52,784 nucleotides of DNA, taken from IMG/VR virus record IMGVR_UViG_3300036760_000035, positions 1-52,784 of that record. The stretch is one strand, 5' to 3'. Position 1 is the stretch's first letter. Each line of letters opens with the position of its first letter. The translations under genes and the position numbers were made by a program. This DNA is from a virus (taxonomy: Duplodnaviria; Caudoviricetes). Shown in pieces: positions 128 through 19,850 of the stretch. The notes under the pieces were generated by a model, which made no database searches, was not told the origin of the DNA, and worked only from the letters and a program-made list of their open reading frames with translations.

Positions 128-144
128 GAAGGATATAACTCAAC

Positions 145-213
145 ATGGCTTACGAATTAATAAATTCAATAGCACAGTGGAACGCCGAAGGAGTTCAACA
201 TGGCAAGTGGTAA
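145..213 (+). CDS. Leader mini-ORF A (MAYELINSIAQWNAEGVQHGKW) overlapping the start of gene 200..700
   Basis: AAGGA upstream of ATG 145; homologous to the mini-ORF at 31797. Confidence 0.55.
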   Translation: MAYELINSIAQWNAEGVQHGKW

Positions 214-700
214 TAGAATTGCTGTATTTATCCCATATGCAAATGAGCCTACGGCAACGAACTTTGCCACTATAAATTTAAGGAATCAACACCCAACACT
301 TAATTTCGACGGAACCACAGACGAAGAGACGATGTTCTCAGATGTGCTATCTCCTGCTTATTCCGGTGGCGGGTTAACAATAAATACCTGGTGGTTATTT
401 ACATCTGCAACTTCTGGTAATCTCAGGGTACAGGCTGCTATTGAAAGAGGAGATGTGTCGTCTCTTGATATAGACTCGGATTCATTCGCTGCTTTTCAGA
501 GTGCTGGCGGAACAGCACCAGGGACTTCGGGACAGTTTATAAAAGTAACCATCACCCTTACAAGCGGAGCCCAAATGGACTCACTTGCCGCAGGGGAGCC
601 TTATCGCTTGAAGATACGCCGAGACGCTGATGGAACATCCGGTACGGATGATATTACGACTGATGCTCAGTTATATATAGTAGAAATTAAGGAGACATAA
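200..700 (+). CDS. Putative virion structural protein (beta-rich)
   Basis: AAGGAG RBS; lies in the structural operon between two fibre genes. Confidence 0.65.
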   Translation: MASGNRIAVFIPYANEPTATNFATINLRNQHPTLNFDGTTDEETMFSDVLSPAYSGGGLTINTWWLFTSATSGNLRVQAAIERGDVSSLDIDSDSFAAFQSAGGTAPGTSGQFIKVTITLTSGAQMDSLAAGEPYRLKIRRDADGTSGTDDITTDAQLYIVEIKET

Positions 701-1768
701 ATGTCTCGCCTTTTTGATGATGTTGGTAGTACAACTCTGGACTCAGCGGTTGTCCCAATAACCGATTATCCATTTACCATAGCCTGTTGGTTTAAAAGTG
801 ATGATATAACAATCAATCAGACATTATACGAGATTTCAAATTCAAGCGATATAGGTAACAGATTTAGACTTTCGGCAAGAGGAGATCTCGCCGGTGATCC
901 AATACGTTTCAATATGAAAGATGGGATCACTATAAGAAATGCAGATTCCACCACAGGTTTTTCTGCCAACACATGGACTCATGCTTGTGCTGTTGGGCGA
1001 TCTGCTACAAGCAGAGATGTATATATAAACGGTGGAGATAAAGGCTCAAATACTGGTGCCGGAACACCAACAGGATTAAACGGCGTTTCGGTAGGTGGCA
1101 CCGCAGATTTGGCAAGTTTTATGTCAGGAAATATAGCAGAGATAGCTGTGTGGAACATTGCTTTAACAGATGCAGAAGTAGCATTGTTAACAACTCGTAT
1201 ATCTGCATTCTTAATGCATCCAGAATCTTTAGTTTCTTATTGCAGATTAATAGGAACACCAACCGAGGAGCCAGATATCATTCTTGGATTTGGACTTGTT
1301 GATCATGGAACGACCATAGCTGATCATCCTCCAATATTCTACCCATCCCGTACGTCAAGAGGATTGGTATTTGATATAACTGGTACAAATTATACCCAAA
1401 ATATAGCAGGGGCTCCTGGCGATCTTCTCGGAGCACTAACCATACAGACCAACAAAGTAATCGCAGGCACACTTACTTCTATGTCTGGTTCGATTGGGAA
1501 GTTTATTTATAAATCTTTCTCAGGTACGATGGGTGCTTTAACAGGTTCCGCGTCTTCTCTCCGGGTTATAGTCATTGAATTAACTGGAGTAGTCGGAGCA
1601 TTGACTGGTGGCGTCACAAAGCGAACAAATAAAGCACTGGACGGAATAACCTCAACTGTTAGTGGAAGTTTAACTATACTGGCAAAGGCTGTTCCCTATG
1701 TTATAATGAAAGCAGGTTGGGCAACTATTATTACTAAAATAACCGGGGGTCGAAGTAAGGATCAATAA
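701..1768 (+). CDS. LamG/concanavalin-A-like domain fibre protein with 19-aa stalk repeats
   Basis: FTIACWFK, WTHACAV, VYING and GNIAEIAVWNIALTDAEV are LamG-type motifs; C-terminal repeats are shared with gene 50891. Confidence 0.8.
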   Translation: MSRLFDDVGSTTLDSAVVPITDYPFTIACWFKSDDITINQTLYEISNSSDIGNRFRLSARGDLAGDPIRFNMKDGITIRNADSTTGFSANTWTHACAVGRSATSRDVYINGGDKGSNTGAGTPTGLNGVSVGGTADLASFMSGNIAEIAVWNIALTDAEVALLTTRISAFLMHPESLVSYCRLIGTPTEEPDIILGFGLVDHGTTIADHPPIFYPSRTSRGLVFDITGTNYTQNIAGAPGDLLGALTIQTNKVIAGTLTSMSGSIGKFIYKSFSGTMGALTGSASSLRVIVIELTGVVGALTGGVTKRTNKALDGITSTVSGSLTILAKAVPYVIMKAGWATIITKITGGRSKDQ

Positions 1769-2925
1769 TGAGTATTATACTTAATCAAGATCTTGACCTC
1801 CTGCAACTAGATGCACTTATTGCCGACGGCTGGACTACGCTTAAACTCTATGCAGCAAATTCTCCAGACGGTAACTTCACCGATTCCTCAGCAACTGTAT
1901 CTCCGACGACTCTTGCATTACTGTTGACTGCTGAGGAGCCATATAGAAGCACGTTCACGCATGCCTCCGGCAATGCTGCTCAGTATTTTAAGATTGTTGC
2001 CTATAATGGCGCTGCAACATCTAACCTGAACGACGCAAAGACTTTTCATGGCGGCGGGGGCACAACACTCCAGATGATTCGACAACGAACCGGCAAGGCC
2101 ATGAAACTATTAGAGACTGGTACAACAACTGCTGGCGGTGGTACGACTACCGCGATATGCACAACTCCATCTTTTACCAGACACAGGGATAACTATTATG
2201 GTGGTGGCTCCACATCAATAGATGGATGGATATTTCATAACCTTTCTACGCATGAATGGTCAGAGATCTCAGGGTGGGTAGCATCTACTGGCACGTTTAC
2301 ATTTGGTGCCATAACATCCGTTGGAAACGGAGAAAACTTTGAAGTTCTTTCCAGGTTTACACCTAATGAGTACAGGGATGCTATCAATTGGGCCATCTCA
2401 TATTGTTTCCCTAAGCTATCTGTTCCAATCATAGACATATCTATAACAACAGTTGATGATGTATACACATATGATATACCTAACAACATTAAGATTATCA
2501 ATAAGGTAGAGATAGAATCTGATTCTAATCCTGATTCCACTGCCCTATCAACACGCGGGCAGCCATGGAAGCAGATACCATATGTTCCTTACGATGACGG
2601 ACTACAGCGCAAGATAGAATTTAAGCGCAACAAAGATTTTGATGTTAGCCGAAGAATAAGAATCACTGGTACATCTATGCTTAACCAAATGTACAATGAT
2701 AATGACTACTGCGAGATTATAGATCCACAGTTAGACCTGCTATGTTACGTGGCGGCGCACAGGCTTTACGCTCAGCTTGCTAATACGGACTCTGCCAGCG
2801 ATATAGATAGATGGAAGGCCCAGGCAAATTACTATCTTTCCATGTATGTTGATGAATCAAAGTCCAAGGGTTCAAGGCGCAAGGCTAAGAAGATATGGCA
2901 AGCAGAAGCGCAATGGTCTGGTTAA
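1768..2925 (+). CDS. Putative head-tail adaptor / tail tubular protein A-like
   Basis: Position before the large tail gene; adaptor-like C-terminal helices (YRDAINWAI...LLCYVAAHRLY). Confidence 0.5.
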   Translation: MSIILNQDLDLLQLDALIADGWTTLKLYAANSPDGNFTDSSATVSPTTLALLLTAEEPYRSTFTHASGNAAQYFKIVAYNGAATSNLNDAKTFHGGGGTTLQMIRQRTGKAMKLLETGTTTAGGGTTTAICTTPSFTRHRDNYYGGGSTSIDGWIFHNLSTHEWSEISGWVASTGTFTFGAITSVGNGENFEVLSRFTPNEYRDAINWAISYCFPKLSVPIIDISITTVDDVYTYDIPNNIKIINKVEIESDSNPDSTALSTRGQPWKQIPYVPYDDGLQRKIEFKRNKDFDVSRRIRITGTSMLNQMYNDNDYCEIIDPQLDLLCYVAAHRLYAQLANTDSASDIDRWKAQANYYLSMYVDESKSKGSRRKAKKIWQAEAQWSG

Positions 2926-4878
2926 ATGACAGACCAATCCTACCCTTATGATGTAACTTTCACAACTGGCGGTGTCACCTACGGATTCATGCTGACTACG
3001 CCACCAGGTAAGAGTAAAACAATTTCAATACAAGAAGCTTCGCCAGTACCGGCATATAGTCTTGATCGTGCCGGTACACAGGACTCGCAGTCGTACCAGA
3101 ATTTTGCACCAGGCGTTGATACTCCATTTTCTATGAGCACGTTTGCGGGCGGGGCTGGGAAACTAGAATTCAATGCAGATGATCCAATGCGTTATCTCTA
3201 TTCAACAGGAATAGTAACACATGTTGACGGGAAGGCATATCTTGCTCCTTCCGCAGCCAGCATTGTAACTGGTGCAGCTACGGCAAGTATTGATTTGTAT
3301 ACAACTTACATGAATCCTACGACTTATGTCAGATATGACTTTGCTGTTATTGGCACTGGCATTTACCGTAGGCCAGCAACAGACAGCACAACCGCGTGGA
3401 CGCTTGTGTATACAGCGGCATTCGCTATTACAGATTTTAGGATTGTAGACGGGCTTGGCGTGATCTGCACTCCGTCAAGTACCAATGCCGCTATCGACTA
3501 CCTTACACAAGCAGATGTCACAGCGGCAGCTACATGGACGCCGACATCTAGAAACCATTCTGTATTCTCTAATGGAAATAAACCTAAGTTCATTAAGCAA
3601 GTCCGAGGGACAGCATTTGCTTTTGTAGATCCAAATAGGGTTTACTTCAATGTAGATATCACAGCGGACACCTGGCTTGGGCCTATAGACACATCATTAG
3701 AAGGCAACATCTCAGGCCCTCCGGGAGATGAGTCTTATTACGGAGTAGGGCTGCACGCAGTTGGCGACTTCTTATTCATAATCAAACAAGATGCTATCTA
3801 CTCAATTGATTCTCAGCAAGAAGTACTTAAGATTATCTGGCAATGGGAAGACAGGCCGAGTGAATATAACTTCAAGTATTTCTCTTCAACAGAGGAAGAG
3901 TTTATTTTCTGTGCTGCTAATGAAGTATATGTTTACAAACCAACAACCGGTGCAATGCCAAAGTTAGAAATAGCTACCCAAGACGGATTCTCAACTAAAG
4001 AAATTCTTGGTGTTACTAATGACAACCAGTATATTTATGTACTTGCCAAAATAGTAGCAGGTAATATTAGTTCTAATACAAGAGTGGCTCTATTTCGCTA
4101 TTATAAAAGTGGAAAGAAATGGGTGCCGGAGATTGTCTGGGAAGACATATCTCTAACAAATAAAACATACGGAAGAATCTTTGCTTCCCCTAATGGCATA
4201 GCTACTCGTGTTTATTGGGGATTGGTAACAAGCGCAGCGGTAACGCGTACATTTATTATGGATGTTGTGCCAGAGTGGGATGAGACAGCTTCTTCTAACT
4301 TTACATCTTCTGCAACGATTTATACAAGCATCGCACGATCTGGTTTTCCTGGCCTGCACAAGCGACACATCTACATTAACATGGATGCGTTAAATCTTTC
4401 TACCAATAATACAATTGCAATTAAATATTCTATAGATGATGGCGCTACATATACAACATTGGCTACTGGCACATCAGCAGAGACATCTTCTAATTATGTT
4501 AATATAGAATCGAAGAGTCTTATACTTGCATTCACTCTAACAAGTCAGAATGGAACGGTTACTCCTGTTCTTAAGGTATTCGACCATCATCAACGAGTCA
4601 GGTTTAAGTATCTTGAAGCTATTCAAATAGGCGTTAGAATAGGAAGATTAATAGAAACACGTAATCGTGGAAAGATTAACGATGACCTTGATACTCAATG
4701 GGATAATATTAAGACACTAAGAACAACAGAAGATCAGATAGTATATAAAGATTTCCTTGGTAATTCATTCAATTGTAGTGTAGACGCGATTGGCGTGGCG
4801 CCAAGCAGACACCAGGATGTCGGGGACTATGAAGAGGAAGCATCCTTAATCATAACTCGCGCAGATATCGGTGCTTAA
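2926..4878 (+). CDS. Putative podovirus tail nozzle/stabilisation protein
   Basis: 650 aa, beta-rich, with an SIDDGATY Asp-box-like motif; position after the adaptor. Confidence 0.55.
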   Translation: MTDQSYPYDVTFTTGGVTYGFMLTTPPGKSKTISIQEASPVPAYSLDRAGTQDSQSYQNFAPGVDTPFSMSTFAGGAGKLEFNADDPMRYLYSTGIVTHVDGKAYLAPSAASIVTGAATASIDLYTTYMNPTTYVRYDFAVIGTGIYRRPATDSTTAWTLVYTAAFAITDFRIVDGLGVICTPSSTNAAIDYLTQADVTAAATWTPTSRNHSVFSNGNKPKFIKQVRGTAFAFVDPNRVYFNVDITADTWLGPIDTSLEGNISGPPGDESYYGVGLHAVGDFLFIIKQDAIYSIDSQQEVLKIIWQWEDRPSEYNFKYFSSTEEEFIFCAANEVYVYKPTTGAMPKLEIATQDGFSTKEILGVTNDNQYIYVLAKIVAGNISSNTRVALFRYYKSGKKWVPEIVWEDISLTNKTYGRIFASPNGIATRVYWGLVTSAAVTRTFIMDVVPEWDETASSNFTSSATIYTSIARSGFPGLHKRHIYINMDALNLSTNNTIAIKYSIDDGATYTTLATGTSAETSSNYVNIESKSLILAFTLTSQNGTVTPVLKVFDHHQRVRFKYLEAIQIGVRIGRLIETRNRGKINDDLDTQWDNIKTLRTTEDQIVYKDFLGNSFNCSVDAIGVAPSRHQDVGDYEEEASLIITRADIGA

Positions 4879-4880
4879 CT

Positions 4881-6383
4881 ATGGCATCTCTTATCGAACG
4901 AAGAATCAATGAACTACAGAATCTAGTTCAAGAGTTAATTGACACTGCTGGCCAAGCGTCGCCCCAGGGCGCCGGTACTCTCAGTAAATCTGTCATCAAG
5001 GGTAAGTCTATTATCTCTTCGATGATAGATGTAGACACGCTTCACTCAGTTCAGGCGAAGACTGGAGACCTCACCGTTACTGGTAATATCACAATGTCAA
5101 CAGATGACAAGGCGATACGTGCCGGGAAGACAGTTTATAACGATACTTCTAATGCAGGATACTGGCTTGGTGTTCATGCTGCTGTTGGATACTTTAGAAT
5201 AGGTAATGCTGTCCAACAATTACTCTGGGACGGTACTAACTTAACAATCTCTGGCGGAATCACCGCCACGTCTGGTGTTATAGGTGGATGGACAATCGGC
5301 GCAGCAGATATCCATGCCGGATCTGGATCTACCTATACTCAAGTATCTTCCGCTGGTGGGTCAACACCAGCATTCTCTGCTGGATCTGCCACAGTTACAG
5401 CAGCACCATTTATGGTTACGCAGTCCGGAGCTATTACCGCTATTTCTGGATCAATAGGTGGGTGGACAATTGATTCAACATCAGGATTCATTCTTGGGTC
5501 GGGCGCGACAACAAGAGGTATAGCTGTCGGCTCTACTACGTTCTATGCTGGTAGTGCAACTCCTTCTTCTGCGCCATTCAGCGTGACCTCAGCGGGCGCG
5601 TTAACGGCCACATCAGCAACTATCATTGGTACGATTACAACAGGCAATATCACAGCTACGGGAGGAACTATCGGTGGCGTAACGATTAACGCCACATCAT
5701 TATCTTCTACTGGCTGGACGCTTACAAATGCTGGTGTGATGACAAGTACATCTGGCACCATTGGTGGATTAACAATAAGTTCCACCGCATTAACTGTCCC
5801 GTCTGGGGTTAAGTTAAAATTTGGAATAGGGGCATTAGATTATCTTAATGATAATCTTCTTCACTTTGAATTATCCAGTTCGCTTATTGGGAAAATTGAG
5901 TTTAAGAACGGTAGTGAAGTTACCTACACAGATCTTCAAGTAAAAGCTTCATCAACTGTTGGACAAATGTCACTAAGAACACGTGGCACAACCAATCGCT
6001 CTGGGATAATTACATTAAACGGTGGCAATACAAATGCTACAACCAACGTCTCGATTGCGGCGATAGATTCAACTCCTGCCACCCGTTCTGGACTTGATCT
6101 TAACGCTGCTGGCACCTTGTCATTAGCAACATATAACACGTCTGGTGTAGCGCAAGGATCGCTTAATCTAAGCCTGGGAGACCAGTCGCTTAAGTTACCA
6201 GACGCGGGGGGTGCCTATTCATTCCAGATACAGGATTCAGCAGGGGAGATACAGTTTGGAGTATCTTCCAATGGCGCATTGATATACCCGGACGCCGATA
6301 CCACAGCCGCTGGCGGGTATAATGGTCGTATGCCTATATTCGTAAATGGTGTACAGAAATACTTACATTACTTTAATGCCTAG
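4881..6383 (+). CDS. Tail fibre/spike protein
   Basis: Repeated ATSGxIGGWTI and APFxVTxxG motifs typical of phage fibre shafts. Confidence 0.75.
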   Translation: MASLIERRINELQNLVQELIDTAGQASPQGAGTLSKSVIKGKSIISSMIDVDTLHSVQAKTGDLTVTGNITMSTDDKAIRAGKTVYNDTSNAGYWLGVHAAVGYFRIGNAVQQLLWDGTNLTISGGITATSGVIGGWTIGAADIHAGSGSTYTQVSSAGGSTPAFSAGSATVTAAPFMVTQSGAITAISGSIGGWTIDSTSGFILGSGATTRGIAVGSTTFYAGSATPSSAPFSVTSAGALTATSATIIGTITTGNITATGGTIGGVTINATSLSSTGWTLTNAGVMTSTSGTIGGLTISSTALTVPSGVKLKFGIGALDYLNDNLLHFELSSSLIGKIEFKNGSEVTYTDLQVKASSTVGQMSLRTRGTTNRSGIITLNGGNTNATTNVSIAAIDSTPATRSGLDLNAAGTLSLATYNTSGVAQGSLNLSLGDQSLKLPDAGGAYSFQIQDSAGEIQFGVSSNGALIYPDADTTAAGGYNGRMPIFVNGVQKYLHYFNA

Positions 6384-6392
6384 GAGAAGCTA

Positions 6393-6641
6393 ATGCAAGA
6401 AGGACAAGATCATGATCTTCTTATCAGAATTGATGAGAAGTTAACCAACATGATTCTTTCATTTAGTAATTTTCAGAAACAAACTTCAAATGAATTGAAA
6501 GAATTATGGATAGAGATTGAATCTATTAAGCTTGAAAACAAGAGCCAACAAGGATTCTTCTCCGGAGTTAAGTTTGCATGGGCGATACTCGGAGCCCTTC
6601 CCCCAAGTGTCATTTTATTAATCTTTGGGGTGAATAAATAA
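6393..6641 (+). CDS. Small coiled-coil plus C-terminal TM protein (lysis-associated, holin-like)
   Basis: DHDLLIRIDEKL N-terminus, hydrophobic C-terminus, coupled to the lysin gene. Confidence 0.55.
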   Translation: MQEGQDHDLLIRIDEKLTNMILSFSNFQKQTSNELKELWIEIESIKLENKSQQGFFSGVKFAWAILGALPPSVILLIFGVNK

Positions 6642-7399
6642 TGTTACGCGGAGTAGATGTAAGTAACTATGATTTCTCTACCTACGATGCTGCTTGTTTT
6701 AAAAATAAAATAGATTGGCTAGCGATTGGTTGTCAGCGAGAAGATTACGCTGTTATCATGGCCAGTGCCGCTCGTGCAGCAAGCATACCTATTTTATGTA
6801 CGTATGCTTTTCTTTACTTTGGTTTTAATGGTTTCATGGGATTTGACGATCTCATTAAACTTGAAACAGAAAAGGCTATACGAGTAGCAAAGCAATTCGA
6901 CATAGGATATGTGGCCCTGGATGTAGAGGCAAGCGGAGTTAATGAGCGTAGCGGGGTAACTCCAGATGAGCGCGTCTCGAATCTCGATCGCGCAATTTCT
7001 ATGGTTCTCGCCGCTGACTTAAAAGTAATTATCTATACTGGAAAATATTACTGGCAAGGGAATATGGGATCTGTGAACAGATCTGAGTTTCCTCTGTGGC
7101 ACGCCAGCTATTGGGATGACGGCCACTATCAAAGCGAAGTAGACTACTGGTTTGGAAAGCCGGTAGCAATACATCAATACACAAGTTCATTCAATCTTTG
7201 TGGTAGAAATAGGGATGCCAATGTTCTCTTTGATGAATCATTATTATTAGATAAGGAAGAAGAAATGAAGGTAGAAGAACTCAATCAAGCTATGGTTATG
7301 CGATTTAATCTTATCAGATTAGCATCTGATACTACTGATTATGGATATATAAAACTTATTAAGATTATAGATCTTCTTAAGAAGAACAATTTATATTAA
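6641..7399 (+). CDS. Endolysin, GH25 muramidase
   Basis: GVDVSNY, ALDVE (DxE), IYTG, LWHASY, IHQYTS and DAN motifs. Confidence 0.85.
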   Translation: MLRGVDVSNYDFSTYDAACFKNKIDWLAIGCQREDYAVIMASAARAASIPILCTYAFLYFGFNGFMGFDDLIKLETEKAIRVAKQFDIGYVALDVEASGVNERSGVTPDERVSNLDRAISMVLAADLKVIIYTGKYYWQGNMGSVNRSEFPLWHASYWDDGHYQSEVDYWFGKPVAIHQYTSSFNLCGRNRDANVLFDESLLLDKEEEMKVEELNQAMVMRFNLIRLASDTTDYGYIKLIKIIDLLKKNNLY

Positions 7400-7524
7400 T
7401 TCTATTCTCTCTCAATCTCAAACCTCACACGGCACATTGTATGTCCGGTGGCCCACACAAGCAACCAACTAACGAGCAATCAAGCACGAGCCCTCTGCTT
7501 CAAGCGACGGGCTAAAGAAAGATC

Positions 7525-7553
7525 TTGCTTGCCCCGAGGGCTTAGGGTATACT
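7525..7553 (+). promoter_or_regulatory. Promoter TTGCTT-N17-TATACT, probably leaderless
   Basis: ATG 7561 lies 7 nt after the -10 box and has no SD. Confidence 0.65.
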
Positions 7554-7560
7554 ATCACCC

Positions 7561-8313
7561 ATGGTGGCTAAAAGCTTCGTAACGATCTCAGACATTCACT
7601 ACCCTTACCAGGACGCTGCGGCTCTTAAGTTGGTCACGATGTTCTTGAAGGATTTCCATCCTCACGAACTTTATTTTAACGGTGACATCTATGACATGCC
7701 GCAGATCTCCAAGTACTCCATGAGGCGCGCTGAGCTACTTAAGACGACTTCCGTACAGGAACACCTTGATATAGGTAACGAGGGCGTGGCGCGCCTTGTG
7801 GATGCAGCAGGGGCACGTAAGAACAGGTTCACTCTTGGGAACCATGAGGATAGATGGGAGATGTATCTTGGCTCGGAAGCCAAGGCTTTAGCGAGTCTGC
7901 GATGCCTTGAATTTGACAAGGTGTTCCAACTCGACAAGATGGAATGGAAGAAATATGGAGACGGATTTTGGCTTAACGATAGACTTTTCCTGTATCACGG
8001 TACCTTCATCAATGTCAATTGGACTGATACTGAAAGACAACGCATTGGTGCTTCGACAATTACTGGACATATGCACAAGCAGCGAGTTACATATCACACC
8101 GATAGGAGTAAAACATATAAAAGTATCGGACAAGGATGCTTGTGTAAACTTGATCCTCCCTATCTCAGAATCCCGCCAAACTGGCAACAGGGATTTGCAT
8201 ACGGATACCTTATGGACTCTGAAAAGTTTATCACTAAGGAAGTTGAAATTATAGAGGGAGATGGCTATAAATGGATGATGCCCGAGGGCAAACTATACAG
8301 AGTGAAACTCTAA
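7561..8313 (+). CDS. Calcineurin-like metallophosphoesterase
   Basis: SDIH, GDIYD, GNHE, HG and GHMH motifs. Confidence 0.9.
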   Translation: MVAKSFVTISDIHYPYQDAAALKLVTMFLKDFHPHELYFNGDIYDMPQISKYSMRRAELLKTTSVQEHLDIGNEGVARLVDAAGARKNRFTLGNHEDRWEMYLGSEAKALASLRCLEFDKVFQLDKMEWKKYGDGFWLNDRLFLYHGTFINVNWTDTERQRIGASTITGHMHKQRVTYHTDRSKTYKSIGQGCLCKLDPPYLRIPPNWQQGFAYGYLMDSEKFITKEVEIIEGDGYKWMMPEGKLYRVKL

Positions 8314-8345
8314 ATTTAGGTATGAATTAACTAGTAGGAGTATAA

Positions 8346-8978
8346 ATGGTTAAGAAACTCAGTACGCATATGATGCTCGTCGTTGACAGGTCTGGCTCTA
8401 TGAATGGATTGGATAAGATTGTTTCTGATGGCATTGAACTCAATGTTGCCCAGGCAATTGCGGCGGGCAAGACTAACGTCAGTATATGTAGATTTGATCA
8501 CTCCATTGACTTCCCATATTGGGAGAAGGTTGCTGCCAATGTTGGACGCGTAGACTTCAAGCCTCGCGGGAGCACAGCTATGCTTGATGCCGTTGGCCGC
8601 ACTCTTGATGCTGTACAAACAAGTGATAAGAAGTATGATACCTATCTTATGGTGATTATTTCTGATGGATATGAGAATGCTTCAACAAAAGAATCATATG
8701 AATCTATCCAGAAGAGAATTCTTGATCTTACAGGAACAGGTATCTGGACATTTTCCTATGTAGGAAGCAATCAGAACCTTGCAGATATCTCCAGAAGACT
8801 GGCCATTCCTATTAGGAATACTCAATCCTGGAGAAGTGATCCAATTGGAACACAGATAATGGCTGCTGCTTCCGCAAGTTCTGCCGGTGAATACTTTGCC
8901 GCACGTGGCGACGGACTCACAGCTTCGTCATCGTATAATAGTGAAAAGAATGAAACACCAACAGGAGACAATAACTAA
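8346..8978 (+). CDS. von Willebrand factor A domain protein
   Basis: MIDAS motif DRSGS, GSTAMLDA and ISDGYEN. Confidence 0.88.
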   Translation: MVKKLSTHMMLVVDRSGSMNGLDKIVSDGIELNVAQAIAAGKTNVSICRFDHSIDFPYWEKVAANVGRVDFKPRGSTAMLDAVGRTLDAVQTSDKKYDTYLMVIISDGYENASTKESYESIQKRILDLTGTGIWTFSYVGSNQNLADISRRLAIPIRNTQSWRSDPIGTQIMAAASASSAGEYFAARGDGLTASSSYNSEKNETPTGDNN

Positions 8979-9163
8979 TGGCCTACGACAGGGCAGCCCC
9001 AAACAAAACAAAGATAGCCTATCTTCTTAAGGAAGATAATCAAGACGAGAATGTGAGACAACTTGTTGATGCACTTGCTAAGATTCTTAACAAGAACGCA
9101 GCTACAATTCAGTCTGATTCTGTATCTACCCTTGTAACAGCCCTTGGCAGCGCCGGGGTATAA
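8978..9163 (+). CDS. Hypothetical protein
   Basis: AGGAG RBS, TAATG coupling. Confidence 0.7.
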   Translation: MAYDRAAPNKTKIAYLLKEDNQDENVRQLVDALAKILNKNAATIQSDSVSTLVTALGSAGV

Positions 9164-9221
9164 CAGTGAAATACACAGTTGAAACCCTTCATGGTTTCAA
9201 CAGGAGGTAGGAAACACCACT

Positions 9222-9551
9222 TTGCGTACTTCCTCGCCGTCAAGAAATCCTGTTAAGGTTTCTAGCCATGCTTTTTCATGCGATGATTGCGGTAGGCAAT
9301 GGACTGGCTCCGGTCAGTGTCATTGCACCGAGTGTCACAAGCATTTCAGCACGGAGTTAAACTTTGATCTACACCGTATGTTTGCGACCAAGGCCGAGAA
9401 CTGGAACAAGAGAAGGTGTATGACCATGGCGGAAATGGCTACGCTAAAACGCAAGTCTGGCAAGCCAGTATTTGCAGTATCGGAAGGGCCATTTGGCACA
9501 ACGTGTGTCGGATGGAGTGCCGACTGGCAAGTAAAATTAGAAGGAGAATAA
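9222..9551 (+). CDS. Phage zinc-binding protein (FDxHR type)
   Basis: CDDC...CHCTECHKHF...FDLHR...C; AGGAGG RBS. Confidence 0.7.
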   Translation: MRTSSPSRNPVKVSSHAFSCDDCGRQWTGSGQCHCTECHKHFSTELNFDLHRMFATKAENWNKRRCMTMAEMATLKRKSGKPVFAVSEGPFGTTCVGWSADWQVKLEGE

Positions 9552-9552
9552 T

Positions 9553-9729
9553 TTGGCTAACACAAGATTAGTTGCAGAGCTACTTAAAAGATACCATTCT
9601 AACTTTGAAGAGCGAGCCCTGGCGGACTTTATCTTTCAATGGCTAGGAGTAGAGCATCCATGGGCGGATAACTTATCCGTAGAGGATATCCAAACAGAAT
9701 TAGATGAGTGTCTTGTTTATGCAGTTTGA
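9553..9729 (+). CDS. Hypothetical protein, 58 aa (MANTRLVAELLKRYHSNFEER...)
   Basis: TTG start after AAGGAG; fills the gap; below the ORF-track cutoff. Confidence 0.6.
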   Translation: MANTRLVAELLKRYHSNFEERALADFIFQWLGVEHPWADNLSVEDIQTELDECLVYAV

Positions 9730-9748
9730 ATTTAAAAGTTCTAACGCT

Positions 9749-9949
9749 ATGCTTAATAGCCTTAAACGAACGCTTGCAAAGTTCGAAAGAGACGTTACTT
9801 ATCTGTTTGGAGCCTCTGCTGGTGCCCAGGGGTTACTCAATCAAACATCACCAGACTGGCACGCAATATGGACTGCTGCCGTAGCAGCAGCGGGATTGGC
9901 TGCATATCGTTTAATTAGAGATGCGTGCTCTGGCGTACCACCTGCTTAA
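9749..9949 (+). CDS. Small membrane protein, holin-like
   Basis: Two hydrophobic segments (DWHAIWTAAVAAAGLAAYRL); likely start ATG 9749. Confidence 0.5.
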   Translation: MLNSLKRTLAKFERDVTYLFGASAGAQGLLNQTSPDWHAIWTAAVAAAGLAAYRLIRDACSGVPPA

Positions 9950-9988
9950 ACGCCAAGTTCACGGTCGCAACTTCTAAGTTGCAACGTT

Positions 9989-10023
9989 GAAGAAGGGCTG
10001 AGATTGGATCTCAGCCCTTCTTC
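9989..10023. terminator. Bidirectional terminator hairpin
   Basis: Perfect 16-bp stem GAAGAAGGGCTGAGAT-tgg-ATCTCAGCCCTTCTTC where the two arms converge. Confidence 0.85.
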
Positions 10024-10183
10024 TAGTGCCTATCTATTAGGGCGGTATCTCATTGTATCTGTATCTCCACCCCTTCTTATCCTAAAGCATCTTTGATGTA
10101 CTTTCCCTTCTTGCCAGAGAATCCATTCTGATGTTCTAATTCTCGTTTCACAAACCCTGCACGTGTCAGTCTCGAAACTATAT

Positions 10184-10531
10184 TCATCGACTAATGAAAA
10201 GTCCGCCAATATCTATGTCTCCTTCCTCCGTAAAGCAACTTCGGAGACCTGGTAGAATTTCTTTAAGTGTTGCGCTCTCCCTTCCACCGTTCATAAAGAT
10301 CCAGCCCCTGACACACATCTCAAATGCTTCTTTCGGTGTTCGTCCATGAAATGTCAGTGATGGATACTCGTATCCATTCTCATCTAGAAATCCGAATCTC
10401 CATTTAAGTTCGAGCCCTGGTTGGAATGAGAATCTTCCGAACCATTCCGTCGTCGGTGGTGGCTTTCCTTCCTCTTGAACAGGCCCCCCGAAATCTAATC
10501 CATGTGGGAACGGATATTCGTCTTCATCCAT
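10184..10531 (-). CDS. Hypothetical protein
   Basis: ORF in the minus-strand gene run. Confidence 0.6.
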   Translation of the reverse strand: MDEDEYPFPHGLDFGGPVQEEGKPPPTTEWFGRFSFQPGLELKWRFGFLDENGYEYPSLTFHGRTPKEAFEMCVRGWIFMNGGRESATLKEILPGLRSCFTEEGDIDIGGLFISR

Positions 10532-10651
10532 CAGGCATTTAACTTTCCTTTCAATTAAAAAATATGTCTATATCGTGTGTGATAAGTATGTACCACATTA
10601 CGTATATCCACCAGAGAATAAGCCAGAAGAATAATATTGGATTATCCAAGC

Positions 10652-10981
10652 TTATCCACTTCCACCCTCCTCCCTTACTTCCATAGACCAGAGTTTATTA
10701 TAGATTGCATTACATGATCGTTGCAGTGTTTCTGAGATGAAGGCAATATCTGCCCCATTCTCCCACATCTGAAACATGATCATTATTTCATCGCTGCCCC
10801 ATGGCTTACCGCTCCTGGTTGTTTCCATGGCATCATCTGGATCTTCCACGAAGTCTTGTGGCCGTATAACGAACGACTGTGTGCCATGATAGAGACAGAC
10901 TGGCTCTCCAAATTCTAAGAACATCTCCTCCCCGCACACATTTTCCGTCCATTCGTTCTTGAAGCTGCAATGGTCTTTCAA
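10652..10981 (-). CDS. Hypothetical protein with C-terminal Myb/HTH-like motif
   Basis: GGAGG RBS; KPWGSDE...ISETLQRSCNAIYNKL. Confidence 0.6.
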   Translation of the reverse strand: MKDHCSFKNEWTENVCGEEMFLEFGEPVCLYHGTQSFVIRPQDFVEDPDDAMETTRSGKPWGSDEIMIMFQMWENGADIAFISETLQRSCNAIYNKLWSMEVREEGGSG

Positions 10982-11159
10982 TAAGAGCCTCCTCCATCAA
11001 TCTTTGTTTTAGATATACACATGCATCAAGCATCTCTTCGTAGACATCTAATAGGGCATTCCTTCCATTGAATGTCGTTAGTGGTCGGTGGTATGTTTTC
11101 ATGCCAAGTTGGTTTCTTGCTTCTATATCCTTGATTAATTCTGGGAAGACTTTATTCAT
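10833..11159 (-). CDS. MazG-like / all-alpha NTP pyrophosphohydrolase-like protein
   Basis: R..LG.KTY...L...EEMLDACVYL motif of this phage family. Confidence 0.55.
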   Translation of the reverse strand: MNKVFPELIKDIEARNQLGMKTYHRPLTTFNGRNALLDVYEEMLDACVYLKQRLMEEALIERPLQLQERMDGKCVRGGDVLRIWRASLSLSWHTVVRYTATRLRGRSR

Positions 11160-11201
11160 TCACTACCATTATTCCAGGAATCCACTCGTGCTTGTGATCG
11201 C

Positions 11202-11678
11202 TCACGGCGTCACCTCCCGCGCGTCGTAGGCGGCGAGGGCGTCTTCCACCCAAGACATGTGCCCAGCGGCAATGCCTTTGCGTATGCACTTCACCACGGC
11301 CCGCGTAAGAGACAACTCGCGCTCCGCCGTCTCCAGTTCGTCGAGCAAGCGAACGACGGCCGACAAGCACGACGGCCCGCTTCGGACACACCCCGCGTGT
11401 TCGCTACGCCACGTCGCCCGTTCCTCTGCTGTGATCATGCTGTGCCTCCCTTGCGATAGTCCGCTGTTTTCTCTGGGCCGGTGTCTTTTTGTCTCTCCTA
11501 ATTTGCTATGTTCTTTACTCCATTCTTTTCGTGCTTCGTCTAACTCTTCACGAGAGTAATAATCTTCAATGCTTATTCCGTGTTCTTCTGCGATTTCATC
11601 CCAATCTAATAAATTATCCGCTTTAATATTATCAATCACATAATCATGGATGAAAGGAATATCAGTCATTATTATCAT
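11202..11678 (-). CDS. Chimeric hypothetical protein; the GC-rich 3' half has its own start (MITAEER...)
   Basis: Abrupt GC shift and internal GGAGG-ATG near 11438. Confidence 0.55.
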   Translation of the reverse strand: MIIMTDIPFIHDYVIDNIKADNLLDWDEIAEEHGISIEDYYSREELDEARKEWSKEHSKLGETKRHRPRENSGLSQGRHSMITAEERATWRSEHAGCVRSGPSCLSAVVRLLDELETAERELSLTRAVVKCIRKGIAAGHMSWVEDALAAYDAREVTP

Positions 11679-12003
11679 CTTTATCAGTAAGATTGCAGAA
11701 GTAATCTACAATAGCCTGTACCTGTTCTACGGTTTGGTATCCAGCTACATTGGCGCTGATATCCATCCAAGTCCAGTGTGACCAGCTTACTGATAAATCT
11801 ACCGGCCATGCCGCTACTTCAAATTCGAAATAATCAAATGGACTGGGTAGAGTTTTGCGCGGCGCGCTATAGTGATATTTGCTGGCCTGGATGCTGACCA
11901 TATGATCTCCACATTTGATAGCTTTCCAAATCCTATAACCTTCTTCTGTGTTTTCAGATATCACGCCTTCTTCTATAATACGATCTCTAAAATCTATTTT
12001 CAT
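11662..12003 (-). CDS. Hypothetical protein
   Basis: GGAGGAG RBS; ATGA overlap with thyX. Confidence 0.7.
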   Translation of the reverse strand: MKIDFRDRIIEEGVISENTEEGYRIWKAIKCGDHMVSIQASKYHYSAPRKTLPSPFDYFEFEVAAWPVDLSVSWSHWTWMDISANVAGYQTVEQVQAIVDYFCNLTDKDDNND

Positions 12004-12707
12004 TCTACTCCTCCAAGAGATGGTCTTCCATTTTCATTCCAGGCATTCCAACAGTGGGGGAACCAATCTTCTAGTAATAGTTCCACTTCCCCTGCTGCTT
12101 TGCGAATCTCACTTTGCGCGTGTATGTCCGTGCGTAACGAGAGGAAGTTAAATAAGCTTCGCAGATTAACAGTCCAGATGAAACTAGTATAAGTATTGAC
12201 AGGTAAAACAATACGCGCCAGTTCCTTTGCAATTCCTTCCTCCAACATTCCTTTGTATTTGTAGTATGCTCCGAGTGAGTTCACCTTGATTACATCTATA
12301 ATATCTTTTATCAGAAATGTATTAGATATATTCTCATATTCGTAACTCATGTTCTTTCCCTTTTGAGAACGAACTTCATCTTCTGATGGTAGCCAGAATT
12401 TAGGTTCGTATTCCGTATATCTGGCACTTTGTTCATTAAATGAACTGAATCTATGTGTACGCCATTGCCGTTCTACAAAGATTGGTACGCTTATTTTGAA
12501 AGACATGATTGCATGCTCGAATGGCGTACCATGTCTATCAGCAATCAATCTTGATAAGAGAGCAAGATCTTTGTCGTCAATTTTAGTGTGTTCCCTATTT
12601 AATGATATCCTGGCGGAATTGACAATGGATAAATCTGTGCCAAGTGTATCTTGGTGAGTGACATACATTTCATTTGAGAAGATAAGATTATCATTCAACA
12701 TATGCAA
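12000..12707 (-). CDS. thyX: FAD-dependent thymidylate synthase
   Basis: IVNSARIS, HGTPFEH, RQWRTHRFSSFNEQSARY, KELARIVLP, NLRSLFNFLSLR and HAQSEIR motifs. Confidence 0.95.
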   Translation of the reverse strand: MHMLNDNLIFSNEMYVTHQDTLGTDLSIVNSARISLNREHTKIDDKDLALLSRLIADRHGTPFEHAIMSFKISVPIFVERQWRTHRFSSFNEQSARYTEYEPKFWLPSEDEVRSQKGKNMSYEYENISNTFLIKDIIDVIKVNSLGAYYKYKGMLEEGIAKELARIVLPVNTYTSFIWTVNLRSLFNFLSLRTDIHAQSEIRKAAGEVELLLEDWFPHCWNAWNENGRPSLGGVE

Positions 12708-12766
12708 CCTCTGGCTCTTGATAGATTGAAGTTACCACTTCATAGTTATCCCATTGAAGATCTGCG

Positions 12767-13117
12767 TCACAAGAGGAGCGATTCCACAAATTTGTTCTTC
12801 GCCTCCTCGCTGCTTTCCCTGTCCCACTTGTCAACATCGAGTAACAGAAAATGTCTACCAGGAATCCCTCTGCCATAGTGGAATGTGAAACACACGACTC
12901 CAACTTTTCCGCTATTAGCAGCCGCGTTAACGTCCGCTTGTGAAATGGCTTTTCGGAATTCAGCAGAGTAATCTTGAAAATTACGATACTTGGATTCTGC
13001 AACAAAATATTCCCCACTTATGTCTGCATGTGAAGTTCCTTGTGATGGATGTCGCCTCCCCCCCAGGCGACTTGCCCACCATCGTTCTGCTTGTTTCCAA
13101 GAATTAGATTGAGTCAT
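12767..13117 (-). CDS. PD-(D/E)xK Holliday-junction resolvase-like nuclease
   Basis: WKQAERWWA...GGRR...ADI...VAESK; likely start at MTQSNSW. Confidence 0.75.
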   Translation of the reverse strand: MTQSNSWKQAERWWASRLGGRRHPSQGTSHADISGEYFVAESKYRNFQDYSAEFRKAISQADVNAAANSGKVGVVCFTFHYGRGIPGRHFLLLDVDKWDRESSEEAKNKFVESLLL

Positions 13118-13601
13118 TATAGTCTTCGCCGATGTTGTAAGTACATCCTTGTTTTCTACAGTTGCCAGCAGCATCAGTATCATGCATATGTGGATGGATA
13201 GGACATAATTCTTTTGCTGATTCGAAGACTACATTGTATTCTGTTGCCATTTTCTGTAGTTCATATCCAACAGAGATTCCTAGAGTGCTGTTATTTACCA
13301 ATACCCTGTTTAGGGCAAGGGATACACCCTCTCGCCGAGCGTAGGAATCATGCTTAGAGCACACGGCCTCCCCTACACCAACAGTGAGGCCGTTTTCTTT
13401 TACAAGGATGAGCGTCTTCCCCCCTCTGACTGCAACATCCCATTCAATAAAGTGTTTGTCTGCTGCCTTCTTGTCAATTGGCATAGATCCATTGTAGCCA
13501 AAGTTCTTGATATCTTCTTTAAGATACCTGTAGTGTTTAACGCAGATTCCGTAACCAGCGCTTCTAATCGCCGCGATAAGTGTTGCGTTATTGATAAACA
13601 T
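13104..13601 (-). CDS. Conserved phage hypothetical protein
   Basis: RGGKT...GEAVCSKHDSYARREGVSLALNR motif common in phages. Confidence 0.65.
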   Translation of the reverse strand: MFINNATLIAAIRSAGYGICVKHYRYLKEDIKNFGYNGSMPIDKKAADKHFIEWDVAVRGGKTLILVKENGLTVGVGEAVCSKHDSYARREGVSLALNRVLVNNSTLGISVGYELQKMATEYNVVFESAKELCPIHPHMHDTDAAGNCRKQGCTYNIGEDYNDSI

Positions 13602-13604
13602 TAT

Positions 13605-13787
13605 CTAATAATCTTCCTCCTGTTCAGATTCGACCCAGAATGGATCACACCAAGATTGTTTGTAATTATGCTCCTCGCAATATGGACACCTATCTTCTTT
13701 CCCGCATCTTGAACAATAAGGATTTGTAGAGGTATTGTAATTTGCTACCCATTTATGCCCAATGATATAGCAAAGAATCTTTTTCAT
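13605..13787 (-). CDS. Small Cys/His protein (DUF1660-like)
   Basis: MKKILCYIIGHKW...CSRCG. Confidence 0.6.
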   Translation of the reverse strand: MKKILCYIIGHKWVANYNTSTNPYCSRCGKEDRCPYCEEHNYKQSWCDPFWVESEQEEDY

Positions 13788-14282
13788 TTATGATTCTTCT
13801 CGCTTACAGTTCCAATACCATTTCTGAGTCTTATTAGAGCGTGCAGGCTTGCCATCAGACCACTCAGGAATAACATTCATGTCTTCGACAACTTCTCCGT
13901 ATCCGCACTTCATTTTGCCTTTCTTGAACTTGTGTTCAATAATGCGTGCGTTTCCATGGTCGGGACACTTCCATCCGCCTTCTGTCTGGACGTTATTTCC
14001 TGCCGCAACAGAAGCATTGCTTCTGAATCGAGGAAGCATACCGTGTTCCTCAGCGGATTTCACAATGAATTGCAGGACGCCAATCTCTGCGCCAATGACA
14101 GCATCAACTTCTGATTCAGAGTTATCATTGATGTCTGAAAGGAATACGTTAATTTGCACATCGTATCCATTAACCTGCCCGGCGATTGTGTATTTCGGCC
14201 ATTCGTTAGATTCCAAGTTTATCCTCCAGGTATTTGTCTCTAAGTTTAATCCTATGATATCAGCTACTTGTTCTTTAGTCAA
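13788..14282 (-). CDS. Hypothetical protein with C-terminal Zn-binding motif
   Basis: GGAGG RBS; CPDHG...C...WYWNC; next to the exonuclease. Confidence 0.6.
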   Translation of the reverse strand: MTKEQVADIIGLNLETNTWRINLESNEWPKYTIAGQVNGYDVQINVFLSDINDNSESEVDAVIGAEIGVLQFIVKSAEEHGMLPRFRSNASVAAGNNVQTEGGWKCPDHGNARIIEHKFKKGKMKCGYGEVVEDMNVIPEWSDGKPARSNKTQKWYWNCKREES

Positions 14283-14348
14283 CCTTGATATCGCTAGCCT
14301 CCATTAGATGCTTTTCAATATGGCAAATAGATCATCATATCTACTCAT

Positions 14349-15296
14349 TTAGTTTTCCTTACATGCCTGAATCAAGTTACAACCTCCGCACGGGTTAAAC
14401 GTTCCTGTCAGCTTCTGATTGGGGCCTCCCCATATGGACTTCGGATCTACATTCGCCTTCTCCAATTCTACGTACTGATAATCTTTATTCATGTAAAGTG
14501 GGGGAACCGGTAGCCTGTTCCGAATTGCAGATGGCACACCTGCTCCAATTATGTCGTATATACTATCATGCACAAACATGATATTCTTTGCAATGTCTTG
14601 TTCAAGACTGACATACTCGATATAGAATGTTAGAGAGGCGTTTCCCCCTTTCCCAAGGAACGGGTCGTTCTCGAACACCTTCATTATGTCCTTTGAAACG
14701 ATTAAGAATAACCCTTGTTTGAGACCTGAGCCCGCTAATTCTGCTTGCAACTGAACATACCAGCCTGGTTGCGATGCCTTAATTCCTTCAAATGGAAGTT
14801 CGGGAAAACCACGACGTAACCATTTCCCATTACGAAAACCAGACATCTTGTATGCAGTTGACTTAACAGAAACAAGTGTTGGAGATCCAAGAAGCTTGAT
14901 AGATGCATCTGATGTTGATGCCATTGAGTTACCCAGATAAGAAGGAATCTGAGTACCCAGCAGGGGCCAACCGGCGCAATGCAATGTTGCAAGAGCCGCA
15001 ACTTCTATGTTGTGCCCTAACCAGAAGGTGAACTTTGTTGAACCAGAGAATTCTTCTTTATCGTAACCAAGAAATGATAGAGCAGTAGCACGAGTACATC
15101 CAATTGATTTCGCCATACCAAATGCATTCCTTCCATCTGGCATGATGTTCTCGTGGCCAGTCAGCATTTCTTTGTTTTTGACTGCCATCAACTCATCATA
15201 TTTATCGACCCAACGCTTCCATTCAGGATCATCCCACACTCCGCCATGTTGCTTCCACCAGTTCTCTAGGGCTCCTGCTATTGGATGTACAAACAA
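14349..15296 (-). CDS. Cas4-like PD-(D/E)xK exonuclease
   Basis: 1+3 Cys pattern (GCTR...PCGGC.....C), G..IE, SD...SVKS and QLQ motifs. Confidence 0.7.
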   Translation of the reverse strand: MFVHPIAGALENWWKQHGGVWDDPEWKRWVDKYDELMAVKNKEMLTGHENIMPDGRNAFGMAKSIGCTRATALSFLGYDKEEFSGSTKFTFWLGHNIEVAALATLHCAGWPLLGTQIPSYLGNSMASTSDASIKLLGSPTLVSVKSTAYKMSGFRNGKWLRRGFPELPFEGIKASQPGWYVQLQAELAGSGLKQGLFLIVSKDIMKVFENDPFLGKGGNASLTFYIEYVSLEQDIAKNIMFVHDSIYDIIGAGVPSAIRNRLPVPPLYMNKDYQYVELEKANVDPKSIWGGPNQKLTGTFNPCGGCNLIQACKEN

Positions 15297-15330
15297 TTAT
15301 TTGTCCTTTCGTCACATCTTGTGCAATATA

Positions 15331-16146
15331 TCATTTTGGGCCGTACCTCTGCCATTCTCCTTTCACAAGTCGATCAAGTTCTATCAACGGAAGTGCGGGG
15401 GTGCAATACATCTGGTTCCATGCGTGCATCAATCCATCAATAAGACCTGGATCATATGGAAATCGTTTGATAAGCAATCCGCATAGCTGTGCCGCTTTGT
15501 GATTCCGCCCGCCTTCTTTTATTGGCATGCATAATTCAGATGCCCAATTTGATGGACGCTCAGACATTACTTCATATTTAGCACCAATAAGTTCGAGGAC
15601 ATTATGTATGCCCCCTAGCTTAAATTCCATAAGTTTGCCATCTGGAAGGAATGTGTATTGAGTACTATTTGGATGAACGCTGGGAGGGGCAACTACATAT
15701 CCACCCTCTTGTTTAAGGTGGTGTAGTTTATCATTAACTCTGAATGTTGATGTCCTTGCGTGAATATCTGGCTTGAAATAAACATGAAATCCTTTACCAG
15801 TTGTTGCGGTCAGGCAATTAGAAAAATCTGGAGCAGCTTCCAAGAATGACATGTATGTTTGCACATCATCGAAATCAAGTACCGCTAAGCCGCTTACTCT
15901 GCCTGTTACAACACCAATGTTATTGAATCCTGTGTTGTGCCTAAACCAATTATCAATTTCAAAGTTCGTAGCACGTCTATCCATATAGGATAGCCAGCTT
16001 ATAATAGACGGCTTCTTATCTCGGAACTTTAACGGGATTACGCTCCAGCCTTTAACATCATAAAATTCAAGATGTTGCTTCATCCTTTCTTGATACTCAG
16101 GCAAGGACGTACTCACGAGATTCTCCCTCGTCTTCATCGCTATCAT
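15331..16146 (-). CDS. Bifunctional DNA primase/polymerase (Prim-Pol plus PriCT-like)
   Basis: GWSVIPL, KKP, NIGVVTG, VLDFD, TGKGFHVYF, GGYVVAPPSVH and EGGRN motifs. Confidence 0.92.
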   Translation of the reverse strand: MIAMKTRENLVSTSLPEYQERMKQHLEFYDVKGWSVIPLKFRDKKPSIISWLSYMDRRATNFEIDNWFRHNTGFNNIGVVTGRVSGLAVLDFDDVQTYMSFLEAAPDFSNCLTATTGKGFHVYFKPDIHARTSTFRVNDKLHHLKQEGGYVVAPPSVHPNSTQYTFLPDGKLMEFKLGGIHNVLELIGAKYEVMSERPSNWASELCMPIKEGGRNHKAAQLCGLLIKRFPYDPGLIDGLMHAWNQMYCTPALPLIELDRLVKGEWQRYGPK

Positions 16147-16474: not shown

Positions 16475-16562
16475 TGTGTTCGAAGCAAATTGGGCAAACC
16501 ATATTGAATTACTCCGTAATTCTACTGTGTAATAGAATTTTAATTCTATGTACCATGTTCAA

Positions 16563-17480: not shown

Positions 17481-17483
17481 ATT

Positions 17484-18812: not shown

Positions 18813-18818
18813 CCACTG

Positions 18819-19781: not shown

Positions 19782-19850
19782 TCTAGTAATTCTATTTGAG
19801 TATCAGTGAAACCAATCTTTTCCATTAAGATTCTCCTAGTTTGTAAACGC

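Follow-up and report, generated by a model that had tools for sequence, protein, structure and literature searches.

A three-copy leader element with conserved tandem stem-loops at stop-start junctions of an uncultured sediment phage

Why should unrelated genes of a single phage be preceded by recognizably the same short stretch of DNA, and what might that stretch do? The question is raised by IMG/VR virus record IMGVR_UViG_3300036760_000035, which we analysed as a complete record of 52,784 bases (the window). An initial annotation had noted that positions 145-203 (copy A) and 31797-31855 (copy B) align without gaps. It had also noted that each begins with an ATG (AUG1 below) opening a short reading frame (mini-ORF) that overlaps the start (AUG2) of the next gene. 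A portable module was proposed, acting through a leader or arrest peptide, through occlusion of the Shine-Dalgarno sequence (SD) or through a +1 frameshift that adds an N-terminal tag. We find that the module exists and has a third copy, and that across its copies pairing is conserved but the peptide is not.

Direct counting confirmed the gapless match of A and B at 40 of 59 positions, as well as the spacing of 55 nt between AUG1 and the ATGs at 200 and 31852 and the +1 frame of the downstream gene. In ten block-shuffled genomes no pair of 59-nt segments reached 40 matches, as against 12 pairs in the real genome, the other 11 of which we read as tRNA genes (by their positions), fibre-gene repeats or low-complexity runs. 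When 68 crudely called gene-start leaders (-55 to +4) were compared in all 2,278 pairs, A-B ranked first with 40 matches, the runner-up having 29 (mean 17.6, s.d. 3.6). The pair still ranked first when the SD and start were left out (25 of 38 versus 20). An nhmmer profile built from A and B only found copy C on the minus strand at full length (16556-16499, E 9e-6), every other match in the window having an E value of at least 0.96. The three copies are 16-35% diverged and no two are identical (pairwise identities in the table); weak similarity of copy A extends about 12 nt upstream of the core. A covariance model (CM R1) of the three copies scored A, B and C, all of them training sequences, at 87.6, 90.3 and 88.7 bits and detected no further significant copy in the window (next best E 0.38). 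The two-copy match is real and non-random, and the element is a small three-copy family of about 58-70 nt. It had been described from two late genes but is not limited to them, since copy C precedes a non-late ORF in the block of replication genes.

All three copies share one layout. Each exactly fills the gap between the stop codon of one gene and the ATG of the next, the intergenic gap being 55-61 nt, and all are oriented with transcription between co-oriented genes. The three downstream ORFs are mutually unrelated. AUG1 and AUG2 are 55 (A), 55 (B) and 54 (C) nt apart, ATGG stands at both ends of the element in all three copies, the second being the real start, and an SD lies 6-9 nt before AUG2 in each. 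The initial placement of AUG1 just after the preceding stop is exact for B, which directly abuts (0 nt) the TAG at 31794-31796 of an HNH gene, and looser for A, which begins 6 nt past the TAA at 136-138 of a 634-aa fibre-like gene. In C the distance is likewise 6 nt, from the TAA at 16565-16563. All three mini-ORFs are in frame with the stop of the upstream gene, are open from AUG1 and end close to AUG2: in A 9 nt past the ATG at 200, in B 38 nt past the ATG at 31852 and in C with a TAA (16511-16509) 6 nt before the ATG at 16502.

Each copy folds into two tandem stem-loops, the second of which holds the SD. Hairpin 1 begins with the G of the first ATGG, and hairpin 2 closes 1 nt before the second ATG. 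With 8-11 pairs the stems are short, and they are AU-rich; in B and C, hairpin 1 forms an almost perfect inverted repeat of 11 bp. Between the stem-loops the linker CACAG(U) is invariant; the invariant blocks comprise this linker and stem bases, whereas the loops vary. The strongest test of the fold was to place the structure of B on C. The 10 differences between them (9 substitutions and one indel) break no pair, 6 falling at unpaired positions and 4 preserving pairing, an outcome with P values of 0.001 and 0.005 under two substitution models (50,000 simulations each). In the three-way alignment of 19 pairs, 89.5% of the 57 cells are paired and five pairs have changed on both sides; this level was reached by 5 of 500 shuffles, and slid controls stayed at or below 47%. 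In copy A, hairpin 2 and the outer stem of hairpin 1 are retained, while the inner stem of hairpin 1 is re-formed 1 nt out of register with B and C. The half-sites of hairpin 1 differ between A and B/C through two-sided changes, with complementarity kept, which favours a folded strand over a sequence-specific binder of duplex DNA.

Table 1. Positions of the three element copies, their parts and the neighbouring genes in the window.
Feature	Position	Strand	Basis or remark
Element copy A	133..203 (core 145-203)	+	40/59 to B, 38/58 to C
Mini-ORF A, 22 codons	145..213	+	translation: MAYELINSIAQWNAEGVQHGKW, then stop
Hairpin 1 of A	148..173	+	fold; outer stem GCU/AGC, inner stem GAAUU/AAUUC
Hairpin 2 of A	177..199	+	fold; encloses SD GAAGGAG (187-193), ends 1 nt before ATG 200
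Downstream gene A, 166 aa	200..700	+	family and homologue searches; no family match
LamG-domain gene after gene A	701-1768	+	
Element copy B	31786..31855 (core 31797-31855)	+	49/58 to C, 40/59 to A
Mini-ORF B, 31 codons	31797..31892	+	sequence
HNH gene upstream of B	31506-31796	+	HNH family match
Hairpin 1 of B	31800..31825	+	fold; 11 pairs, one bulge, 3-nt loop
Hairpin 2 of B	31829..31851	+	fold; encloses SD AAAGGA (31840-31845), ends 1 nt before ATG 31852
TerL with LAGLIDADG intein	31852..34392	+	start 31852 fixed by conserved N terminus of relatives
Element copy C	16499..16568 (core 16556-16499)	-	nhmmer E 9e-6
Mini-ORF C, 15 codons	16509..16556	-	sequence, translation: MVHRIKILLHSRITE, then stop
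GATase-like gene upstream of C	16563-17480	-	
Hairpin 1 of C	16529..16553	-	fold, alignment
Hairpin 2 of C	16503..16525	-	fold, alignment; SD GGAG (16515-12) in loop
Putative 56-aa ORF (MVCPICFEH...) after C	16332..16502	-	no Pfam match; library matches only repeat-type proteins
Plus-strand genes	~21.4 kb round to 9.9 kb	+	ribonucleotide reductase, helicase, 173-aa ORF, HNH, TerL with LAGLIDADG intein, major-head-protein-like, 2489-aa ORF, fibre-like
Replication-type gene block	10 to 21 kb	-	copy C sits before an ORF in this block

The junctions of relatives indicate how the element came to its present places. TerL homologues are at most about 65% identical to the phage protein; an alignment of 30 of them led to 80 IMG/VR loci, 16 of which were inspected at the TerL start, and a query pattern from the TerL C terminus had no match in IMG/VR. 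In the six closest of these 16 loci an HNH gene lies directly upstream and its stop overlaps or abuts the TerL start with no insert, one such junction reading TAG-ATGGAT, which is the junction of the window minus 55 nt. In the remaining ten loci another gene stands upstream and likewise abuts TerL. In G001, a relative at the GATase site, the GATase-like ORF overlaps the start of the next ORF by 1 nt, again with no insert. Since the junctions of relatives are compact and insert-free at both the TerL and GATase sites, the element was copied into them in this lineage. In the 29 loci with a relative of gene A (L001-L029, 32-50% identity), which belong to diverse uncultured phages, the upstream genes are varied and differ from that of the window, and the leader is absent; a LamG relative follows in 17 of the 29. 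At the paralogous fibre junction of the window (1740-1770) the same AAGGAT C-terminal motif is followed at once by a real gene start; the ATG at 145 therefore stands where a gene start is expected. The covariance model found no match at E <= 0.01 in 98 related loci (658,649 bases; best E 0.4) and none in five whole records of TerL relatives. The idea of a portable module at gene starts has thus held up, with three homologous, co-oriented copies before three unrelated ORFs and none in the junctions or whole records of relatives.

Our tentative preference is for a lineage-specific, copied leader cassette that would act in cis on the mRNA at translation initiation and include a relay mini-ORF. 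The element would then be a self-contained translation-initiation leader within a polycistronic mRNA. Ribosomes finishing the upstream gene could restart at AUG1, read the short relay of 15-31 codons through both hairpins and terminate shortly before (C, 6 nt) or after (A and B, 9-38 nt) AUG2. Termination there may hand initiation to AUG2, which has its own SD, or may clear it. Hairpins and single-stranded linker would give the start site a fixed local fold that is independent of the upstream gene. Coupling by reinitiation or RNA unfolding over such distances is established (PMC12548453), and the distances found here (0, 6 and 6 nt from the upstream stop to AUG1, and 6-38 nt between the mini-ORF stop and AUG2) are of this kind.

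Several observations weigh against this leader function. The SD of AUG1 is poor in A (13-nt spacing) and absent in C, and no need for regulation common to the three downstream genes is evident. The hairpins are weak, with fold z-scores of -0.7 to -1.7; A breaks 5 of 18 pairs in the register of B (P 0.07-0.21); and the minimum free energy structure of C lacks hairpin 2 in an 81-nt context and contains it in a 69-nt one. Just three sequences could be compared, two of which are close to each other, and B served as the source of the structure. Opening the ribosome-binding site (RBS) costs 8.2, 6.7 and 6.65 kcal/mol in the three copies, compared with a genome median of 6.6 (ranks 16, 32 and 33 of 69). 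The proposed SD occlusion is therefore correct insofar as a hairpin does enclose the SD, but masking is not unusual, the opening cost being ordinary for this genome. Holding the first 18 nt unpaired in a thermodynamic model changed the paired probability of SD2 (the SD of AUG2) and AUG2 only from 0.58 to 0.59, from 0.50 to 0.48 and from 0.60 to 0.59. An ermC-like switch finds no support, as a modelled ribosome on AUG1 leaves SD2 unexposed in A, B and C. Because the opening cost is ordinary, modelled occupancy of AUG1 does not expose SD2 and the SD of AUG1 is poor or absent in A and C, we claim only a cis-acting leader with a relay. Overall, the peptide reading loses ground and the structural reading gains it, and the function of the element is inferred.

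If the leader cassette acts in this way, it would bear on a general problem. Phage operons are packed stop to start, and how swapped-in genes are wired into the chain of translation is little known; a copied leader that supplies the ribosome-binding site, the start and the fold would solve this simply for new genes, and would also make a handy natural part for operon building. Its practical weight is limited: the copies number only three, all in a single uncultured sediment phage for which neither a host nor a close relative is known.

The main rival, in our view somewhat unlikely, is a selfish or neutral micro-insertion or recombination joint that spreads to stop-start junctions by microhomology or by a hairpin-dependent DNA process, the hairpins serving copying at the DNA level rather than gene expression. 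A unit of 54-55 nt would here repeat its ATGG context and be tolerated because it brings its own SD and start; we include cassette shuffling of the PeSL kind (see below). Its absence from the junctions and whole records of relatives agrees with such an origin, and so do the ATGG at both ends of all copies and the 9 nt that the flank and the element end of copy A have in common (TCAACATGG). The supplied RBS is ordinary, as a silent insert predicts. The genes after A and C differ from those of relatives; gene A and the LamG gene stand behind other genes in diverse phages, and G001 has a dissimilar small ORF behind its GATase-like gene. The genome also carries an intein and an HNH gene. However, there are only three copies, diverged and none identical; each points in the direction of transcription and is in exact phase with the start codon. 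A Y1/HUH transposase was not detected in the phage (PF01797, 0 matches, with matches in control genomes). Nor did an element-less variant appear in the contigs of the only run listed as carrying the record, which is DNA from a sediment metagenome, probably the source sample; no RNA run is listed. Aligned to 16000-32500, these contigs pass through B and C with neither variant nor gap nor joint, although contigs cannot show rare variants.

A bolder version, which we regard as quite unlikely, joins copying and expression in a micro-mobile 'start cassette', a unit of 54-55 nt that inserts copies of itself at stop-start junctions, repeating the ATGG start context, and whose hairpins are kept as copying signals. 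Such a cassette would be harmless, or would set expression through its hairpin-framed SD, new start and relay mini-ORF. If true, this would give PeSLs and the gene 60 bypass cassette a counterpart at the level of translation.

The hairpins could also form an mRNA site for a trans-acting factor, either an RNase processing or stabilizing site or a translational operator, recognized through the CACAG(U) linker that they present between them. The confinement of invariant blocks to linker and stem bases, with variable loops, and the retention of structure without strong SD masking speak for such a site, and REP-type palindromes near stop codons are reported to affect ribosomes and mRNA cleavage (PMC12306157). 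Set against this, no candidate factor was identified, the stems have only 8-11 pairs and no Rfam family matches; we consider the possibility distinctly improbable.

We give very little credence to the peptide itself, whether as a leader or arrest peptide (SIxQWNxExxQHG) gating the downstream start or as a +1 frameshift fusion. The motif is not conserved, because copy C has lost 1 nt after codon 6 and reads TAG in place of TGG while both hairpins and the nucleotide sequence are kept; its product (MVHRIKILLHSRITE) lacks the conservation among copies that a leader peptide would call for. Selection on the peptide as a common feature of the element is not supported. Between A and B, moreover, residue identity has no preference for the mini-ORF frame (10 of 22, as against 9 of 21 in each other frame; P 0.11-0.33), and codons 2-6 differ at 9 nt positions. 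In codons 7-20 the initial annotation had counted nine mismatches, none at a second codon position; within the 59 nt there are ten, and the second positions are indeed unchanged. Four of these ten are halves of compensatory base pairs. In favour of the peptide, only 3 of 20 mismatches fall at second positions (hypergeometric P 0.043). The frame is open in A and B, and substitutions between them are conservative, with a BLOSUM62 score of 63 in the mini-ORF frame that is unusually high (P 0.001-0.007). As this score is not explained away, the peptide is retained at low probability.

The N-terminal tag is contradicted by TerL, whose relatives start at the residue aligned with AUG2 and have no homologous extension. 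The N terminus M-[DN]-R-L-P-Y stands at the same start in 19 of 30 aligned relatives; the remaining 11 comprise 8 with the same aligned Met and a variant of the motif, 2 that are cut short and 1 with a different short N terminus. Extensions made by the gene caller occur in 3 relatives, among those with the motif or its variant, and all six HNH-bearing relatives leave no room for an N-terminal extension. Read-through or recoding of the stop codon was considered and rejected, as none of the eight tRNAs is a suppressor and long ORFs in the standard code are present in the genome. The peptide pattern, whose occurrence in related phages had been put forward as a check, has 0 stretches in IMG/VR. 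A looser pattern gave 17 metagenome matches, among which four and two are identical contigs; in none is the context a matching one, and an upstream ATG, hairpin 1 and any further similarity are missing throughout. We read them as chance, about 17 being expected on a guessed database size. We infer that the amino-acid sequence of the mini-ORF is not the functional part of the element.

Equally improbable is a DNA-level signal, that is a promoter or an operator bound as duplex DNA before selected genes, for although hairpin 1 of B and C is nearly a perfect inverted repeat and one sigma-70-like match (9/12) overlaps copy C, the element strand has no promoter-like site at A or B, the match at C is within shuffle expectation, the half-sites of A differ from those of B and C, the phasing to the ATG is exact and no T7-like RNA polymerase was found among ten proteins scanned. 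None of the three element regions contains a terminator-like site.

Searches beyond these loci returned no further copy. The three-copy consensus had 0 matches in IMG/VR and 0 in GTDB genomes, and the hairpin-1 pattern 0 in IMG/VR. A short core pattern matched one IMG/VR stretch and 16 in GTDB, all of which lack hairpin 1 and score 14-22 bits under the covariance model, compared with 88-90 for the true copies. Two stretches of the window had no DNA-level match among GenBank phages. At the gathering score, Rfam 15 matched the window eight times, each match being a tRNA and lying outside the elements. The architecture is thus unmatched in Rfam 15 and the sequence collections searched, while searches of papers were aimed at named analogues only.

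Two places in the window recall parts of the element. At 9158-9202 (+), after the stop of the gene at 8978-9163 and before a gene with an FDXHR zinc-binding domain (9222-9551), ACACAGT is followed by a perfect 9-bp hairpin ending in TTCAAC and then by AGGAGG; this partial look-alike is not significant (CM E 2.6). An exact 11-mer of the element core at 24501-24511 (+) forms the last codons (..STQWN and stop) of the gene at 23688-24515 and is followed by AAGGAG and a TTG start at 24538; it is not significant either, with about 2.5 chance matches expected by our estimate. Elsewhere, 20566-20624 and 20739-20797 on the minus strand form another 40/59 repeat, which is a common coding motif (..Y-D-N-S-Q-x-W..) of two small neighbouring genes that are probably paralogues.

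The surroundings of the three copies offered further observations. The fibre-like genes at 50891..138 and 701-1768 have in common a C-terminal VIMKAG..GG motif (75-98 and 1699-1722) and an AAGGAT SD for the next gene (120-145 and 1745-1770). The TerL intein, which carries LAGLIDADG homing-endonuclease domains, interrupts the protein after its Walker A motif (31996-33100), and most TerL relatives (about 470-530 aa) have no intein. Eight tRNA genes at 23585-26349 (Pro, Thr, Ile-UAU, Gln, Arg-UCU and three Leu) include no suppressor. The first and last 127 bases of the record are identical, and the genome therefore comprises 52,657 bp.

Downstream of copy C, a library search with the 56-aa ORF gave two matches; the one examined (P0082) is a tandem-repeat protein and uninformative on the start codon. 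This ORF overlaps the next, Zn-ribbon-like ORF by about 70 nt in another frame (16097-16502, minus strand). The relative G001 has the same layout (L146, 2400-2850), in which a 64-aa ORF overlaps a 102-aa ORF by 53 nt, and the small ORFs are not alike. The overlaps after the GATase-like gene could be real overlapping genes or a frameshift site.

How does the element compare with known systems? That no equivalent had been described, as the initial annotation held, goes too far, since phage repeats associated with starts or gene junctions are on record in SAS/ESAS (PMC3203893) and PeSLs (PMC2839356). With REP elements they are the closest analogues, and the element belongs to none of these families. 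For SAS and ESAS of cluster K mycobacteriophages, the 2011 report proposes a role in translation initiation, which it leaves unproven (PMC3203893). They resemble the element in being SD-containing repeats within one genome, in one orientation and a few nt before starts, in gene gaps of >50 bp with an inverted repeat just upstream (PMC3203893). The element is placed as a SAS would be, in all three copies, with respect to its SD 6-9 nt before the ATG, its co-orientation and its gap of 55-61 nt. In contrast, the 13-bp SAS consensus, which lies within 3-7 bp of starts (PMC3203893), is not found at the three elements; allowing up to 2 mismatches it has four matches in the window, none at or near them. 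These matches lie at 22467, 22609, 24118 and 40064, and 0 of 100 shuffles reach four. SAS further occur in 11-19 copies per genome and at non-structural genes only, whereas the element has 3 copies; the 17-bp inverted repeats of ESAS have half-sites with a common consensus, whereas the element keeps only pairing; and the description of SAS contains neither a mini-ORF nor a second ATGG, both of which the element has (PMC3203893).

PeSLs (promoter-early stem-loops) of T4-type phages resemble the element as short, composite, repeated cassettes at gene boundaries in which a stem-loop accompanies expression signals, and as markers of sites where genes are inserted or swapped (PMC2839356; PMC4122927). 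Their strong sigma-70-like promoter and GC-rich terminator stem-loop (PMC2839356) are both absent from the element. The element is built around an SD and a start, a PeSL around a promoter.

REPs are host elements that occur in hundreds of copies and are spread by RAYT transposases. The phage has no match to PF01797, the family of Y1 (HUH) transposases by which hairpin elements of the REP/PATE type are moved, and a host-encoded enzyme is possible. REP/BIME sequences resemble the element as repeated imperfect palindromes between co-transcribed genes, near stop codons, with reported effects on ribosomes and mRNA stability (PMC12306157). REPs lack the SD and start of the next gene, whereas the element carries both.

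In attenuation of the ermC/cat type, paired segments come after a leader ORF and the last hairpin contains the second SD. The element is arranged alike, and B and C allow an alternative 2:3 pairing to be drawn. Unlike these systems, the peptide of copy C is not conserved, the alternative fold leaves SD2 unexposed and no inducer logic is evident. The bypass insert of T4 gene 60 is reported to share with the element a length of ~50 nt, a 5' hairpin, an SD-like element before the resumption site and matched end codons (bioRxiv 10.1101/2022.08.31.505936). It is reported to adjoin an endonuclease gene in a mobile cassette (bioRxiv 10.1101/2022.08.31.505936), as copy B follows an HNH gene. It lies within a coding sequence and needs ribosome hopping, whereas the element precedes an ORF and ordinary initiation at AUG2 suffices.

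Translational coupling through a short upstream ORF resembles the element in stop-start proximity, in an ORF that ends near the start and in structure at the RBS (PMC12548453; iraD/CsrA, PMC5574718). The known coupling cases are single loci, whereas the element is a repeated, copied cassette with RBS masking not above the genome average. The element is a second, unrelated example beside the start-associated repeats of cluster K mycobacteriophages, the function of which is still unknown fifteen years after their description. By analogy, the element may work most like a start-associated repeat combined with short-ORF coupling.

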